A stretch of DNA of 64,000 nucleotides, taken from Gammaproteobacteria bacterium (lineage in GTDB: Bacteria; Pseudomonadota; Gammaproteobacteria; Eutrophobiales; Eutrophobiaceae). The position numbers and the translations under genes are program-made. The notes under the pieces were generated by a model. That model saw only the letters and a list, made by a program, of their open reading frames with translations, searched no databases and was not told where the DNA came from. The stretch lies in NCBI GenBank assembly GCA_965222155.1, contig CBDCTH010000012.1, positions 704,001 to 768,000 of the forward strand. Reading direction: 5' to 3'. This document shows positions 1 to 25,768 of this stretch, in pieces; within the stretch, counting starts at the first letter, position 1, and each line of letters begins with the position of its first letter.

Positions 1-1721
<1,721 letters not shown>

Positions 1722-1741
1722 CCCATTGCAGTTTCTGCCTG

Positions 1742-1772
1742 AAAAAAAACCCGCCTCTCGGCGGGTTTTTTG
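1742..1772. terminator. Intrinsic terminator, probably bidirectional
   Basis: AAAAAAAACCCGCC-TCTC-GGCGGGTTTTTT between convergent groEL and rho. Confidence 0.85.
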
Positions 1773-1795
1773 TTTCAGGGCCAGGGATGGTCTAT

Positions 1796-1888
1796 CGTCA
1801 TTCCGGCGCATGCCGGAATCCAGTAGATGGAACTTCCTGGATAAAGAATAGGTTAACTGACTGGATTCCGGCATGCGCCGGAATGACG
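1796..1888. repeat. REPIN-like paired palindrome, family A copy 1
   Basis: CGTCATTCCGGCGCATGCCGGAATCCAGT, a 35-nt spacer, then the exact reverse complement. Confidence 0.9.
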
Positions 1889-2058
1889 ATCGCTGCGAAT
1901 GACGATCGCTGCGAATGACGATCGCTGCGAATGACGATCGCTGCGAATGACGATCGCTGCGAATGACGATCGCTGCGAATGACGCTGCCGTTGCGAATGG
2001 CGACCGTTGCGAATGGCGACCGTTGCGAATGGCGACCGTTGCGAATGGCGATCGCAGC
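1881..2058. repeat. 16-bp tandem repeat, 11 units
   Basis: 6x GAATGACGATCGCTGC, one 18-bp hybrid, 3x GAATGGCGACCGTTGC, one degenerate unit. Confidence 0.95.
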
Positions 2059-2079
2059 GTATAACGGCTGGCGCTCGTT

Positions 2080-3339
2080 CTACCTCTTTTTCATGGCGTC
2101 GAAGAACTGGGCATTGTTCTTGGTCGCTTTCAGCCGCTCCAGCAGAAATTCCATGGCGGTAATAGGTTCCATGGGATGCAATAGTTTCCTGAGTATCCAC
2201 ATTTTCTGCAGTTCCTCTTTTTCCGTCAGCAACTCTTCGCGCCGGGTACCGGAACGGTTGATGAAGATGGCCGGATAGATGCGTTTTTCCGAGATCTCCC
2301 GGTCCAGGTGCAATTCCATATTACCGGTGCCCTTGAATTCTTCATAGATGACTTCGTCCATGCGCGAACCGGTATCGACCAGGGCAGTGGCCAGGATGGT
2401 GAGGCTGCCGCCCTCCTCGATATTCCGTGCGGCGCCAAAAAAACGTTTCGGTCTTTGCAGTGCATTGGCGTCAACGCCACCGGTCAATACCTTGCCTGAT
2501 GCCGGCACAACCGTATTGTAGGCCCGGGCAAGACGGGTGATTGAATCAAGCAGGACGACTACATCCCGCTTATGCTCCGTCAGGCGTTTTGCCCTTTCTA
2601 TTACCATTTCAGCTACCTGTACGTGGCGCGAGGCGGGTTCATCAAAGGTGCTGGAGATCACCTCTCCCCGCACCGAGCGTTCCATTTCCGTGACTTCCTC
2701 CGGTCGCTCATCAATGAGCAGGACGATCAAATGGCATTCCGGGTGGTTGTGCTTGATTGACTGGGCAATGGATTGCAGGATCATCGTTTTGCCGGCCTTG
2801 GGCGGCGATACGATAAGACCGCGCTGGCCCCTGCCGATAGGCGCTACCAGGTCAATGATTCTCGGGGTCAGATCCTCGGTGCTGCCATTGCCTACTTCCA
2901 GCTTCAAACGTTCCTCCGCAAATAACGGCGTCAGGTTTTCAAAGATGATCTTGTTCCTGGCCTTTTCGGGCGCTTCGAAGTTGATCTCATTGACCTTGAG
3001 CAGCGCGAAGTAACGCTCGCCTTCCTTGGGCGGCCTGATCTTGCCGGAGATATTATCACCGGTTCGCAGGTTGAAACGCCTTATCTGGCTGGGAGAGACA
3101 TAGATGTCATCGGGACCGGCCAGGTAGGAACTGTCTGCGGAACGTAAAAATCCAAAGCCATCCTGGAGAATTTCCAGGACGCCGCTGCCGTAAATATCTT
3201 CGCCCTTTCTGGCATGCGCCTTCAGGATTTCAAAAATGACGTCTTGTTTTCTTGAGCGGGCCAAACCATCGAGGCCGAGGGATTCAGATATGAGAACTAA
3301 TTCTGATGCGGGTTGTTGCTTCAATTCTGTGAGATTCAT
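2080..3339 (-). CDS. rho: Transcription termination factor Rho
   Basis: MNLTELK start, GFGFLR, PPKAGKT Walker A, DERPEE. Confidence 0.99.
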
Positions 3340-3521
3340 TTGCTACGTACAAATATGATTTTATTGACTGGCTCTATAACGACAGCCATGTGGTTGAAAT
3401 GCGCTTAAAACCCGGGTCTAAGTTAGAGGGAGTTATTACGACAGGTTAAGTGAAAATTAGCACGTCAAGTCGGAAACGTCCAGTTTTTTTATAACTTTTT
3501 TTAGTAAGTTTGTCAATAAGG

Positions 3522-18027: not shown

Positions 18028-18375
18028 TCAGAGTATCTCAAGCACATTTTCCGGCGGGCGTCCTATGGCGGCTTTCCCGTTAGCCAGGACTATGGGCCGT
18101 TCGATAAGGACCGGGTGCTCAATCATGGCGTCAACCAACTGGTCGTCGGACAGATCCCCGGCATCCAGGCCATTGGCTTTATATGCGTCTTCTTTTCTAC
18201 GCATCAATTCCCGGGGCGCCAGCCCAAGCAAGTTCAATAGCCGCTTCAATTCGCTCTTGTCGGGTGGATTTTTCAGGTATTCGATGATCCTTGGCTCCAT
18301 TCCCTGCCGGCGCAGTAATTCCAGGGTTTGTCTCGATTTGGAACAACGGGGGTTATGATAAATTGTTACGGTCAT
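18028..18375 (-). CDS. arsC: ArsC (glutaredoxin-type)/YfgD family reductase
   Basis: [23 protein letters not shown]. Confidence 0.88.
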
Positions 18376-20087
18376 TTTTCTGTCCGCTTCTTTCCTTTGA
18401 TGAATTCAATGACGTTATCCAGCGGGATGTCAATACTTTGCGCGTCACGTCTGCCTTTGTATTCAAGAGTATGGTTATCCAGCCCGCGCTCGCTGAATAC
18501 GTAGCGGTGGGGTATGCCGATCAATTCCATGTCGGCAAACATGACCCCCGGCCGTTCCTTTCTGTCGTCCAGTAACACATCTATGCCGCTGTCGACAAGC
18601 CGTTGATATAAATCATCAACGGCCGCGCGCAGGCGTTGTGATTTGTGTGCATTGATGGGTACCAAGGCAATCTGGTACGGGGCCAGGGCATCCGGCCAGA
18701 TAATACCGCGGTCATCGTGATTTTGTTCAATGGCGGCGGCAACGATGCGAGAGACGCCGATACCGTAGCAACCCATGTACAAGGTCACGGCCTCGCCGGT
18801 TTCATCCAGACACAGGGCTTTCATTGCCGCACTGTACTTTGTGCCCAGTTGAAAGATATGTCCCACTTCGATGCCCCGGGCGATTTTAAGCGGCCCGGAA
18901 GTGTCGGGAGCCGGGTCGCCTTCCACCACGTTACGCAGGTCGGCGTGTGCGGGCTCCGCAAGGTCCCGTTGCCAGTTAACACCCGTGAGGTGATAACCGT
19001 TTTCGTTGGCGCCACAGATGAAATCCGCCAGGATCAGGGCGGCACTGTCGGCGATAACCGGCATGTTTAATCCGACCGGGCCCAGTGAACCGGTATCACA
19101 GTCCAGTTGTTTGCTGATCTCCTCAGGGGATGCAAAGGTCAGAGGTTTTGCCAGTTCCGGAAGTTTTTCCGCTTTCAGGCGGTTCAGGTCGTGGTCACCC
19201 CGCAATACCAGGGCGACAAGGGCGGTGTTGCTGCCCCTTACGATCAGGGTTTTCAGGCAGCGCGCCGGACTGACGTCAAAGAAACGGCTGATATCGTCAA
19301 TAGTATGTTGATCCGGAGTCGCTGTTTTCTGCAGGGACTCGCCCGGCGCCGGTCTTTTTTCCGCAGGTGGGGGTGCCGCAATGAGTTCCACATTGGTTGC
19401 GAATTCGGAGCCTTGCGAAAACGCGATACTGTCCTCACCGGAGTCAGCCAGTACGTGAAATTCATGGGATACCTTGCCGCCGATATTACCGCTGTCGGCA
19501 ACAACGGGGCGGAACTCCAGCTCCAGGCGATTGAAAATGCGTGTATAGGTCCGGTACATCACTTGATACGTCTGTTCCAGGGAATCCTGGCTGAGATGAA
19601 AGGAATAAGCGTCTTTCATAATAAATTCCCGGGCCCGCATGATTCCGAAGCGAGGGCGAATCTCATCGCGGAACTTGGTCTGGATCTGGTAGAAATTGGC
19701 CGGCAGTTGTTTATAACTGCGGATTTCGTGCCGGATCAGGTCCGTTATGACTTCCTCGTGGGTGGGTCCCAGACAGAAATCCCGTTTATGCCGATCCTTG
19801 AAACGCAATAATTCCGGGCCGTATTCCTCCCAGCGTCCGGATTCCTGCCACAGCTCGACTGGCTGCACTCCGGATAACAGGACTTCCCGGGCGCCCGAGG
19901 CATCCATTTCTTCACGCACAACGGCCTCTACCTTGCGCAGCACTCTCAGACCGAGCGGGAGCCAGTTATAGATCCCGGCGGCTACTTTCCGGATCATACC
20001 GGCCCGCAACATCAATTGGTGACTGATAACCTCGGCATCCGCCGGGGCCTCACGCAGGGTGGCCAACAGTGTTTCTGTAGTTCGCAT
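18372..20087 (-). CDS. proS: Proline--tRNA ligase
   Basis: [16 protein letters not shown], insertion editing domain, MGCYGIG. Confidence 0.98.
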
Positions 20088-20135
20088 AGATGGATTTTTC
20101 CAGGGCAGACGTCAATCCCGATAATAAAGGATAGA

Positions 20136-20165
20136 ACTGTAACTATACTAGGGGCAGGCCGTCAA
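20136..20165 (-). promoter_or_regulatory. Candidate sigma70 promoter of proS
   Basis: Minus strand TTGACG-N18-TACAGT. Confidence 0.45.
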
Positions 20166-20194
20166 GAATAGAAAACCAGCTGTATAACTCAGTT

Positions 20195-20362
20195 CGTCAT
20201 TCCGGCGCAGGCCGGAATCCAGTTAACAAACCAACCTTTTACCATAAGGAACCGTCTTTTTCGACTGGATTTGCATCCTACGCTCCGTTGACGGCACATC
20301 CCCCTGCTTACAGCCTGCAGGGGCAGGCTATGTACCACTACTCGGCCTGCGCCGGAATGACG
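20195..20362. repeat. Family A copy 3 with nested insertions in the right arm
   Basis: CGTCATTCCGGCGCAGGCCGGAATCCAGT, 40-nt spacer, then ACTGGATT[~70 nt]CGGCCTGCGCCGGAATGACG. Confidence 0.85.
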
Positions 20363-20381
20363 ATAACCCGGATTCTAAAGT

Positions 20382-20620
20382 ATGCGTTCGCCCTGACGGG
20401 TTACCCTGAACCCCTTGTCAGGGGGGCGTCGTTCTGTTATACGCCCCCCTGCCGGCGCCTTCAGGCTGTCCCTGATCCCTGGCCCGTCGCAGTCAAACCG
20501 GGCCGCCTTCAGGCATAGAGGAAGTCATTACATCAGTAAATAGTAACTCACGAGTTCCTTTCTGGCGGTTAGCCCGACTTCCGGCTTACCGTTGCCTCAT
20601 TTCCTTAAGGCTGTACTGAT
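20382..20620 (-). ncRNA. Candidate structured non-coding RNA, family unidentified
   Basis: Several stems on the minus strand (GCCT/AGGC, CGGT-AGCC/GGCT-ACCG, GGCCCG/CGGGCC, 11-bp CAGGGGGGCGT/ACGCCCCCCTG), duplicated GCCTGAAGGCG, TAAAAT box at 20624-20619, no credible long ORF. Confidence 0.55.
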
Positions 20621-20724
20621 TTTAGCCGGTTAAAATGAAAGGAAAAGCAGAGAATCGGCGTAAAAGTGATAAAAGTCACAAATATATATAAAAATATAAT
20701 GATAAGTGCGGGTCCACGACCTTG

Positions 20725-20813
20725 AGATATTTGGGGTCAGAGTAAAAATACTCGACGATAAATCAGCGCCGGCTGCCAACCTGACAGTATTTTTACTCTG
20801 ACCCCAAATATCT
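20725..20813. repeat. Paired inverted repeat, family B copy 3
   Basis: AGATATTTGGGGTCAGAGTAAAAATAC, 35-nt spacer, exact reverse complement. Confidence 0.92.
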
Positions 20814-20825
20814 GCAAAGCACAAC

Positions 20826-20854
20826 TTGACGCTTGTGAAGAATATCAGTAAGTT
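20826..20854 (+). promoter_or_regulatory. Candidate sigma70 promoter of ilvIH
   Basis: TTGACG-N17-TAAGTT. Confidence 0.5.
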
Positions 20855-20868
20855 ACCATTTCTTCTTA

Positions 20869-22620
20869 TTGATTAATCTGTGGAATTATCTGGTGGGTAA
20901 GTCAAAGCCAATACTACGCGGCGCGGAAATCTTCGTGCAGGCATTGAAAGATGAAGGGGTAAAGCATGTTTTCGGTTACCCCGGTGGCGCCGTATTGCAT
21001 ATTTACGATGAACTTTACAAGCAAACAGAGGTTGAGCATATCCTGGTACGCCACGAGCAGGGCGCCACTCACGCAGCCGATGGTTACGCCAGGGCAACGG
21101 GTCGCCCCGGCGTAGTACTGGTCACATCCGGCCCGGGAATTACCAATGCCATCACGGGTATTGCAACGGCTTATATGGATTCCATTCCCCTGGTTGTTTT
21201 CAGCGGCCAGGTTCCCACGTCCGTTATCGGTAATGATGCGTTCCAGGAAGTCGATGCCATCGGCATCTCCAGGCCCTGTGTAAAACACAATTTTCTCGTT
21301 TACGATGTGAAAGACCTGGCGGGCATCATCAAGAAGGCATTTTACGTGGCTTGCAGCGGTCGTCCCGGCCCCGTACTGGTGGATATCCCAAAGGACGTTA
21401 CGGCAAACTCCTGTGCCTACGAGTACCCGGATACAGTCGATATGCGTTCCTACCGGCCCACAGTCAAAGGCCACCCGGGCCAGATCAAGCGGGCAATCAA
21501 GCTCATGCTGAAAGCGCGCAAACCCATGATCTATACGGGCGGCGGCGTTGTCCTCTCAGACGCCGACGCCGAGTTAATCGAATTTACCCGGTTGCTGGGT
21601 TTCCCGATCACCAATACGCTGATGGGCCTGGGCGCGTATCCGGCGACGGACCGGCAGTTTATCGGCATGTTGGGAATGCACGGCACCTACGAAGCCAATA
21701 TGGCCATGCACCAGTGCGACGTATTGATTGCCATCGGTGCGCGTTTCGATGATCGGGTCACGGGCGACCTGGAGAAATTCTGCCCCCACGCGAGGATCAT
21801 CCAAATCGACGTCGATCCGTCCTCCATTGCCAAGAACGTGCCCGTGGATGTCCCCATCGTCGGTGATGTCAAGCACGTATTGCAGGAGGTCAATGCCGGT
21901 TTGAAGAGTATCAGTGACCGGCCTGACGTGGACGAATGGTGGCGCCAGATCAAAGCCTGGCAGGCTATGGATTGTCTGCGCTTTGACAGAAACTCCAGTC
22001 TGATTAAACCGCAACTGGTTATTGAACGATTGTATGAACTGACCGAAGGTAATGCTTATGTGTCTTCGGACGTCGGCCAGCACCAGATGTGGGCCGCCCA
22101 GTTCTATAAATTCGACAAGCCGCGCCGCTGGCTCAATTCAGGCGGTCTCGGCACTATGGGGTTCGGCTTGCCGGCGGCGATGGGGGCCAAGATAGCCTAC
22201 CCGGATGAAACGGTCGTGTGCATCACGGGCGAGGCCAGCCTGGTGATGTGTATCCAGGAGCTTTCAACCTGCCTGCAATACCGGACACCGATCAAGATTA
22301 TTAATTTGAACAACCGTTATATGGGCATGGTCAGGCAGTGGCAGGAGTTCTTTTACGAAAAGCGCTATTCACATTCTTATATGGAGGCCTTGCCTGATTT
22401 TGTCAAACTGGCTGAAAGCTTTGGCCACGTTGGGATGCGTATCGAAAAGGCCGCTGACGTGGACGCGGCGCTTAAAGAGGCGCTGGCAATGGAGGATAAG
22501 CTAGTTTTGATGGACTTTATTACCGACCAGACCGAGAACGTATATCCGATGATAGCTGCGGGCAAGGGACAGCACGAAATGCACCTGGCGCCCGGTTCAG
22601 AAGAGCGGGAACTGGCCTGA
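20869..22620 (+). CDS. ilvI: Acetolactate synthase III large subunit
   Basis: GYPGGAVL, RHEQ, TSGPG, GMVRQWQ. True start may be GTG 20893. Confidence 0.96.
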   Translation: MINLWNYLVGKSKPILRGAEIFVQALKDEGVKHVFGYPGGAVLHIYDELYKQTEVEHILVRHEQGATHAADGYARATGRPGVVLVTSGPGITNAITGIATAYMDSIPLVVFSGQVPTSVIGNDAFQEVDAIGISRPCVKHNFLVYDVKDLAGIIKKAFYVACSGRPGPVLVDIPKDVTANSCAYEYPDTVDMRSYRPTVKGHPGQIKRAIKLMLKARKPMIYTGGGVVLSDADAELIEFTRLLGFPITNTLMGLGAYPATDRQFIGMLGMHGTYEANMAMHQCDVLIAIGARFDDRVTGDLEKFCPHARIIQIDVDPSSIAKNVPVDVPIVGDVKHVLQEVNAGLKSISDRPDVDEWWRQIKAWQAMDCLRFDRNSSLIKPQLVIERLYELTEGNAYVSSDVGQHQMWAAQFYKFDKPRRWLNSGGLGTMGFGLPAAMGAKIAYPDETVVCITGEASLVMCIQELSTCLQYRTPIKIINLNNRYMGMVRQWQEFFYEKRYSHSYMEALPDFVKLAESFGHVGMRIEKAADVDAALKEALAMEDKLVLMDFITDQTENVYPMIAAGKGQHEMHLAPGSEERELA

Positions 22621-25377: not shown

Positions 25378-25587
25378 ATGAGTACGAGGGGAACCGTCAA
25401 ATGGTTCAACAATGCTAAAGGATTTGGTTTTATTGAGCCGTCTGAAGGCGGAGATGATATTTTTGTACATTATTCGTCCATAAAATCTGAAGGCTATAAG
25501 AGTTTAAATGAGGGGCAGAGCGTAACCTATACCGCTGAGCAGGGTCCAAAAGGATTCCATGCTATTGAGGTGGTCGTTATCAACTGA
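25378..25587 (+). CDS. Cold-shock domain protein, CspD-like
   Basis: [20 protein letters not shown]. Confidence 0.92.
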
Positions 25588-25609
25588 ACAGGTTGTTATC
25601 GTCTGATAG

Positions 25610-25636
25610 AACCCCGCGCTTGCGGGGTTTTGTTTT
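25610..25636 (+). terminator. Intrinsic terminator
   Basis: AACCCCGC-GCTT-GCGGGGTT followed by TTGTTTT. Confidence 0.8.
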
Positions 25637-25768
25637 AACTGTTTATCCCCAGAGAGCGGAACAACATCTTTCGGGCATTACGGTGCCTTCGAACCTGTGG
25701 ACAATGATGTGTGGATCAGTTAATCATTCCAGGAATCAAATAGTGGTACTGACAGTCATATCAACATC

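Follow-up and report, generated by a model that had tools for sequence, protein, structure and literature searches.

We analyzed the region between the genes proS and ilvI in a stretch of 64,000 nucleotides (nt) from a Gammaproteobacteria bacterium (GenBank assembly GCA_965222155.1, contig CBDCTH010000012.1, positions 704,001 to 768,000 of the forward strand), here referred to as the window. On one side of the region lies the gene of a proline--tRNA ligase (822 bits; minus strand, 18372-20087), on the other the gene of the large subunit of acetolactate synthase (plus strand, approximately 20893-22620). Between these two genes the minus strand carries what is very probably a real and independently transcribed small RNA (sRNA) gene of approximately 200 nt, which extends from about 20612 to about 20405. 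Judged from its sequence, the most likely role of the RNA would be that of a CsrA antagonist on an unrelated scaffold.

An earlier reading of the window, here named the original prediction, had placed a structured RNA candidate at 20382-20624. All of its parts, namely TAAAAT, both 5' hairpins, AGAAAGGAAC, a seven-codon frame, the repeat copies and the 3' stems, were found in place on the minus strand. The element itself lies within these limits, but both ends had to be revised. TAAAAT had been counted as part of the RNA and is the -10 box, so that the RNA begins near 20612. At the other end, family-wide conservation stops at 20411 and the tail to 20382 was kept only in the closest relative (G019). 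The BLAST match in this relative spanned query positions 1-229, and those in other genomes ended at positions 183-221. The start and the end of transcription used here are those that we infer. The individual parts of the gene are listed in Table 1.

Table 1. Parts of the sRNA gene between proS and ilvI, in coordinates of the window
Feature	Position	Strand	Remark
Crp-type palindrome TGTGACTTTTATCACT (TGTGA-N6-TCAC[A/T])	20680-20665	-	putative activator site, centre at ~-60.5/-61.5
-10 box TAAAAT	20624-20619	-	
HP1, 5' hairpin GCCU[UAAGGAAAUG]AGGC with A-N-GGA in the loop	20611-20594	-	predicted transcription start at ~20612
HP2, hairpin CGGUAAGCC..GGCUAACCG	20591-20566	-	length varies across the family
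Second A-N-GGA motif AGAAAGGAAC	20563-20554	-	position conserved as A-N-GGA-A/G-U-U/C
Seven-codon frame GTG..TAA (MSYYLLM)	20551-20528	-	probably non-coding
3' core, three-way junction	20521-20411	-	covarying; P0, P1, P2 and P3
P0	20521-20517 with 20415-20411	-	closes the core domain
P1, copies of GCCUGAAGGC (GCCTGAAGGC(G))	20514-20505 with 20466-20457	-	central tandem G.A
P2, hairpin GGCCCG/CGGGCC	20504-20481	-	
Junction AGGGAUCAGGGACA	20480-20467	-	two adjacent CA-N-GGA motifs; best-conserved single-stranded stretch
P3, GC-rich hairpin of 11 bp	20453-20417	-	
3' tail with hairpin GGGUU[CAGGGU]AACCC	20410-20382	-	3' end uncertain

No Rfam match was obtained across the whole window at the gathering thresholds. 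When the search of 20050-20900 was extended to E values up to 10, nothing was found within 20382-20624, and the only intergenic matches were microRNA-like ones to the 89-bp palindrome at 20725-20813 and an FtrB-like one to the repeat element at 20194-20363. This is in agreement with the original prediction, which had not recognized the element as tmRNA, RNase P, SRP, 6S or T-box RNA. Its description as single-copy was not confirmed. BLAST of the 243 nt against the same genome detected two more places, covering only query positions ~98-183, with 87% and 78% identity. A covariance model (R1) built from 41 aligned 3' cores gave exactly three matches in this genome, with 128, 105 and 97 bits, the last being the copy in the window (20407-20533). 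Both paralogues repeat the overall plan of the gene: a palindrome in a T-rich stretch, a -10 box similar to TAAAAT, a 5' hairpin with a GGAAAC loop, a variable hairpin, a second GGA and the 3' core.

Outside of this genome, BLAST matches were present in 18 of 22 other genomes of the genus and absent from both genomes of other genera of the family as well as from all 16 genomes of other families. With the covariance model, matches were obtained in 16 of the 19 genomes sampled from this genus, an uncultured one of the Gammaproteobacteria, those in G003 and G008 reaching 32-33 bits. The rest of the order, covered by 81 genomes from 32 genera, gave only two weak matches (28.6 and 34 bits), each in a different genus. 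One match of 26.9 bits, the only one among 150 genomes from other families in a class-wide sample, was without P2 and the junction and was rejected. An exact-pattern scan with the core junction over 185,579 species genomes returned 27 stretches, of which 22 were in records titled 'MAG: Gammaproteobacteria bacterium' and one in a record titled 'uncultured Enterobacteriaceae'. The remaining four, in Actinomycetes or Sporomusa, had no box upstream and were discarded as chance matches. The family is essentially restricted to one genus.

The number of matches rises to 8-9 per genome, with tandem arrays. A short form of ~125 nt, in which the promoter is directly followed by the core and the 5' domain is missing, occupied the position between ilvI and proS in four loci (L013, L015, L016 and L050). 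As these short forms consist of promoter and core, the core represents the essential unit and the 5' domain an add-on module. The two forms, core alone and core with 5' domain, provide a tidy system for dissecting the role of the core.

The divergent neighbor was ilvI in 11 loci, and proS (87% identity) was the downstream gene in both loci that were checked for it (L006 and L013). The gap between core and proS was ~70-90 nt in several species; in the window it amounts to ~320 nt, including an inverted-repeat insertion of 170 bp. A sigma-70-like site at 20165-20136, downstream of the RNA, supports the earlier assumption that proS has a promoter of its own. A functional link to an aminoacyl-tRNA synthetase had also been suggested. 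It was not borne out, because the next gene is convergent at the other two copies in the genome and because copies elsewhere lie in polysaccharide gene clusters.

Three genomes (G005, G010 and G018) contain tandem units of ~1.4 kb in which the RNA gene and a gene for a protein of 272 amino acids (aa) follow each other by turns; the copies of the latter gene have diverged, with a mutual identity of 62-85%. Arrays of 3-6 units, with one divergent RNA copy per unit, were seen in L025:2100-11600, L023/L024 and L073/L088 (genomes G005, G018 and G010). These arrays are situated in clusters of glycosyltransferase and aminotransferase genes for polysaccharide biosynthesis. The 272-aa protein weakly resembled Uma2 (Pfam E = 5e-5, below the cut-off) and PADLOC PDC-S17 (34-38 bits), and a match in NCBIfam was not obtained.

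The minus strand of 20382-20624 folds at -93.7 kcal/mol (z = -3.36), and none of 200 shuffled sequences folded as well. For the opposite strand, z was -2.93. The core helices P0 to P3 were proposed on a MAFFT alignment of the 41 cores, which contains 30 invariant columns, and were then counted against column shuffles. Pairing was found in 85.0% of 1504 cells compared with 80.6% in the shuffles, and the covariation score was 0.197 compared with 0.139; neither value was reached in any of 500 shuffles. Changes on both sides were seen in 13 of the 37 pairs. When the 3' partners were slid by 1-3 columns, pairing fell to 36-57%. Collecting homologues and examining their covariation had been suggested as a check in the original prediction; by the counts against column shuffles, the core covaries.

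The clearest signal of the core was P1, in which two copies of GCCUGARGGC are paired together. Both copies of GCCUGAAGGC had been noted earlier, and they are indeed present, but a single long-range helix, formed by one copy with the other, describes them better than two local hairpins do. A local hairpin cannot account for the P1 pairs, since it would leave a loop of 2 nt. Columns 25/80 contained CG in 19, UA in 17 and UG in 3 sequences, and columns 28/77 GC in 15, GU in 13 and AU in 12. The two central positions of P1 were G.A/A.G in approximately 34 sequences and Watson-Crick pairs in a few. P0 alternated between UCCUCC/GGGGGA and AUGCCC/GGGCAU. Without a supplied structure, RNAalifold recovered P0, P1 and P3. 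It missed P2, a helix that is misaligned by MAFFT in one subgroup. G.U pairs such as those in UCCUCC/GGGGGA fix the strand of the RNA as the minus strand of the window. In the 5' domain, 78.5% of the cells of HP1 were paired (17-52% in slid controls), and HP2 showed compensatory differences as judged by eye only, for example GCGGC/GCCGC versus GCGAC/GUCGC.

Box and -10 hexamer were surveyed with a regular expression for 50 core-pattern matches in loci L001-L050, with the box being searched within 330 nt upstream. A TGTGA-N6-TCACA box preceded 40 of the 50 matches. In 36 of these 40 boxed copies a hexamer of the type [T/C]A-N-A-[A/C]T was located exactly 40 nt after the end of the box. The -35 region was poor. 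The position of the palindrome centre (Table 1) is what we take to be the class I position of CRP-dependent promoters. With a conserved promoter of its own, a covarying structure, genus-wide conservation and no Rfam family, the element agrees with the original prediction of an independent, possibly undescribed non-coding RNA.

The sole Crp-like protein of the genome has 245 aa and contains the domains cNMP_binding (68.9 bits) and HTH_Crp_2 (38.6 bits). As an orthologue of E. coli CRP it was rejected, scoring 58.8 bits against a cut-off of 266, and a class I adenylate cyclase was not found in the genome. Its recognition helix reads R-E-A-I-T-R and fits the pattern R-E-x-x-x-R, by which TGTGA is read in CRP. 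The gene upstream of the factor gene encodes an AAA_16/STAND-type P-loop ATPase, the visible N-terminal part of which we take to look cyclase-like. Within the genus, 18 of 19 genomes encode a homologue of the factor with 61-97% identity, compared with only 5 of 81 genomes elsewhere in the order, where the identity was 29-50%. This distribution parallels that of the RNA, the related genomes being non-independent observations. The Crp-family protein is rather likely to be the regulator of the RNA gene.

Boxes of the same kind were also observed at other genes. A gene for a ComEA-like protein of 90 aa (HHH_3, helix-hairpin-helix; L059:1127-1520, G000:C12 ~2992773) has a box in front, which stands to a TAAACT -10 box in the same 48-nt geometry. 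This box suggests that the regulon of the Crp-family factor includes a competence-type gene. A second sRNA-like gene is located outside the window, directly after the Crp-family gene (L110:2286-2500, corresponding to G000:C12 ~2145346-2145560). Its promoter combines a -10 box, TAGACT/TATACT, with a TGTGA-N6-CACA box at class-II distance. Approximately 165 nt of it were conserved in all 6 loci of the genus that were examined, without an Rfam match, and GGA hairpin loops of the types GUACAGGA-N-GUAC (with variable N) and ACAGGA-N-GU were present. Furthermore, the contig stretches C8:5932/C10:91419 and C8:15044/C10:100529 were near-identical, box-bearing promoter included, which fits the figure of 7.28% contamination or duplication for the assembly.

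A repeated sequence motif of the family is relevant to its possible partner. A-N-GGA was found 158 times in 43 distinct copies, while 41.4 occurrences were expected from dinucleotide shuffles. Long forms carried four and short forms two of these motifs per copy at fixed positions, with GGA being kept and N being variable. In the core junction, CCA-N-GGAUCA-R-GGACAGCC, GGAUCA and GG were invariant, N was G, C or U and R was G or A. The loop of HP1 reads A-N-GGAAAC with any of the four bases as N, and in many paralogues the second motif is enclosed in a CGAAUGGAAUUCG hairpin. The mean unpaired probability was 0.66 for GGA triplets versus 0.37 for other bases, and 0.72 and 0.60 for the two GGA motifs of the junction. 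The consensus obtained for CsrA by SELEX, RUACARGGAUGU, has ACA and GGA as its invariant parts, and GGA is mostly located in the loops of hairpins (PMC7652899). A variable N, a kept GGA and the placement in loops thus follow the pattern described for CsrA sites.

Of the features of the Csr/Rsm functional class, exposed GGA motifs were found, at a density below that of canonical members, and CsrA is encoded in the genome (88 aa, PF02599 at 91 bits). Within the genus, 18 of 19 genomes have CsrA; for the order as a whole the count is 90 of 101 sampled genomes. The models of CsrB, RsmY and RsmZ reached at best 13.7, 20.2 and 15.4 bits in the whole genome, all below the cut-offs and all elsewhere in the genome, and RsmZ and RsmY were over the cut-off in none of the 101 genomes of the order. 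A sub-threshold RsmY-like match in the window (25511-25631, 19.4 bits) turned out to be the end of a cold-shock gene (25379-25640) with a strong terminator. Likewise, the best sub-threshold RsmY matches in other genera (L101 and L104) were 3' ends of cold-shock genes with their terminators. With CsrA widespread in the order and the known antagonist sRNAs below the cut-offs in this genome, the family is a candidate for the antagonist side of the Csr circuit.

Based on these features we tentatively propose a Crp-family-activated sRNA that titrates CsrA, a reading to which we give a little less than an even chance. The Crp-family factor, probably sensing a cyclic nucleotide, would bind TGTGA-N6-TCACA at approximately -61 and activate the weak promoter. 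The RNA would then fold into the 5' hairpins and the three-way-junction core. In this fold four A-N-GGA motifs would be displayed, one pair in the loops of hairpins and the other pair as neighbors within a bulge of the core. Through these motifs CsrA, a global repressor of translation, would be bound by the RNA and titrated away from its mRNA targets. That such titration is the main action of the RNA may be suggested with similar caution.

Several features are shared with CsrB, RsmY and RsmZ (RF00018, RF00195 and RF00166). These are likewise non-coding and multi-copy in a CsrA-encoding gammaproteobacterium, expose repeated GGA motifs in hairpin loops or linkers and have a dedicated activator-dependent promoter with an upstream palindrome. 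In contrast, the RNA described here has no homology to their models, contains four GGA motifs only and lacks a U-tailed terminator. It has a covarying three-way-junction core, whereas theirs is a string of simple stem-loops. Furthermore, a CRP-type palindrome at approximately -61 is found instead of the GacA/UvrY box that typifies canonical Csr/Rsm sRNA genes. Stand-alone sRNA genes with a Crp-type palindrome upstream are also known among those activated by CRP and cyclic AMP, of which CyaR is an example. The present system differs from these in that its factor is no orthologue of E. coli CRP and that no class I adenylate cyclase was found.

The closest analogue is McaS (IsrA) of E. coli. McaS binds and antagonises CsrA; it is transcribed under repression by glucose and in partial dependence on CRP (PMC8151843, PMC7652899). 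McaS likewise has few GGA motifs and is linked to the expression of polysaccharide (pga) genes, and some of the present paralogues are located in polysaccharide clusters. The two RNAs are not homologous, as no Rfam match was obtained here. McaS has ~96 nt, depends on Hfq and base-pairs with mRNAs, whereas the RNA found here has ~200 nt with a complex conserved core.

A number of observations weigh against the titration of CsrA by this RNA. The assignment of a CsrA function rests on a short and degenerate motif. The two motifs of the core are only 8 nt apart, which we take to be too close for one CsrA dimer to bridge. Four GGA motifs in ~200 nt are few for a sponge; CsrB has 18 sites (PMC8151843). 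The elaborate, conserved three-way junction with its tandem G.A is unneeded for a sponge and hints at another or an additional partner. A GacA-type box was not found near the gene, and genome-wide only two poor and unrelated matches occurred at up to one mismatch. The best match to the UvrY equivalog model (177.7 bits) was below the cut-off of 280. On the minus strand within 20382-20624 no terminator-like site of the intrinsic type was present, and read-through into proS is possible because proS starts ~70-90 nt past the core in several species. The covariation of HP1 was no better than in the shuffles. Finally, three genomes of the same genus (G009, G012 and G017) have CsrA and the transcription factor and gave no match to the covariance model.

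The expression data weigh on both sides. They consist of assembled contigs only, by which starts, ends, strand and level are not fixed. In the metatranscriptome X1, a contig of 151 nt on 20453-20603 had a depth of 4.4, close to the 4.55 of ilvI. Runs X2 and X3 had no cover on the RNA. In run X4, the library type of which was guessed as RNA, a contig of 203 nt with a depth of 142 matched 20444-20606 and extended by another 40 nt into a P3 variant; for proS and ilvI, contig depths in this run were 2.5-4.7. Towards the predicted start the contigs stop 6-9 nt short of it, at 20606 and 20603, and at its opposite end the X4 contig reaches ~20404, just past P0. These contigs give a weak hint of a discrete and abundant RNA of ~200 nt.

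Other explanations were weighed against the same evidence. The core is far tighter than a sponge needs, with its 30 invariant columns, the tandem G.A and the covarying P0 to P3, and it is the part that is kept alone in the short forms. It could therefore bind another protein or a small ligand, with the GGA motifs being part of that recognition surface, and the amplification of the RNA gene in tandem with the 272-aa Uma2-like gene in G005, G010 and G018 would suit such a partner. We regard this as unlikely, as no gene is consistently adjacent and as the variation exactly at the N of A-N-GGA in four places, 5' hairpins included, fits CsrA better. The Uma2-like neighbor was also rejected here as an obligate partner, since none of its ~8 paralogues in the genome adjoins any of the three RNA copies. 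It is improbable that the core, with its 14-nt GGA-UCA-GGA bulge, is a recognition module for a non-CsrA partner and that, in the species with tandem amplification, the RNA and the Uma2-like protein (PD-(D/E)XK-type) form a new RNA-protein module, possibly a nuclease or defence unit that is controlled by the RNA and governed by cyclic nucleotides. A trans-acting sRNA that regulates mRNAs by antisense pairing, with the Crp-family factor in control and the GGA motifs incidental or secondary, would agree with the regulated promoter of its own, the stand-alone position (two of the three copies in the genome are convergent with the next gene) and the several paralogues with differing 5' domains, as known from multi-copy sRNA families. 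It would also agree with the CU-rich, anti-Shine-Dalgarno-like UUCCUC in the 5' strand of P0, and McaS does both jobs (PMC7652899). Yet in the sole single-stranded stretch of high conservation two internal positions are variable, unlike in a seed. In many paralogues AUGCCC stands in place of the CU-rich sequence and the partner strand compensates, which marks this sequence as structural. As a Rho-independent terminator with a U tail, typical of Hfq-dependent sRNAs, is missing as well, we consider base-pairing to be a quite unlikely main function.

The remaining explanations concern the position of the gene, its repetition and its short frame. A 5' leader that acts in cis on proS or another downstream operon, be it a riboswitch, an attenuator or a leader responsive to CsrA, is suggested by the syntenic copy, which is co-oriented with proS in many species with a gap down to ~70-90 nt and no terminator, and by one array copy that precedes a sugar-modification operon. 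The chance of this is small: the other two copies in the genome have no co-oriented downstream gene, and in the window ~320 nt, the inverted-repeat insertion and the sigma-70-like site separate the RNA from proS. Moreover, the downstream genes are unrelated in function, a conserved expression platform is absent, and an activator-dependent promoter would be odd for an essential synthetase. A multi-copy family with up to 8-9 copies per genome and tandem arrays, next to true repeats in the same intergenic region, could also represent a dispersed DNA repeat or the remnant of a mobile element and no RNA gene at all. This is extremely improbable, given only three copies here, the syntenic position between ilvI and proS across species, the promoter at fixed spacing, the strand-specific G.U pairs and compensatory changes and the lack of terminal inverted repeats of its own. 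The original prediction had named many dispersed copies as the mark of a repeat, and the genome contains just three diverged ones of 78-87% identity. A dual-function RNA with a translated MSYYLLM frame, as had also been considered, is very improbable, too. A GGA-containing, Shine-Dalgarno-like motif lies 5 nt before the GTG, and this motif is the second A-N-GGA motif of the family. Read by eye, the frame is MSYYLLM in the window and, with one synonymous change, in L004; a counterpart in the same place is MYFSLLK in L005, and a related frame in L006, L009 and L010 has 13 codons. In L007 the start codon is lost (ACC), in L008 the frame stays open and continues through the core, in L011, L012 and L022 it is placed otherwise, and it is missing from the short forms. 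Hence start, frame and length were not conserved among orthologues as would be expected of a small protein. Since the conserved UCUCCUUG stretch is able to form pairs with the AAGGA motif, its conservation is explained at the level of the RNA. The seven-codon frame is probably not a gene.

The family is new and supported by covariation whatever its function, and could enter Rfam. If the activation by the Crp-family factor and the titration of CsrA are true, the function of a sponge would have been reinvented on an unrelated and far more structured RNA. This sponge would be wired to a Crp-family, probably cyclic-nucleotide-sensing factor in place of GacS/GacA, and the regulon of the factor would take in a competence-type gene besides two or more families of sRNAs.

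Two additional elements were observed in the intergenic region. Between the sRNA promoter and ilvI, an element of 89 bp with perfect inverted arms of 28 nt is located at 20725-20813; it is missing from that position in species such as those of L013, L015 and L016. Its microRNA-like Rfam matches are surely spurious. On the other side of the RNA gene, an insertion of ~170 bp at 20194-20363 resembles a miniature inverted-repeat transposable element, with perfect terminal inverted repeats of 21 nt (TCGTCATTCCGGCGCAGGCCG) and a partial FtrB-like Rfam match. An arm of this insertion was hugely repeated in the contigs of the RNA runs, with a summed depth of 560-3400 at 20170-20236.

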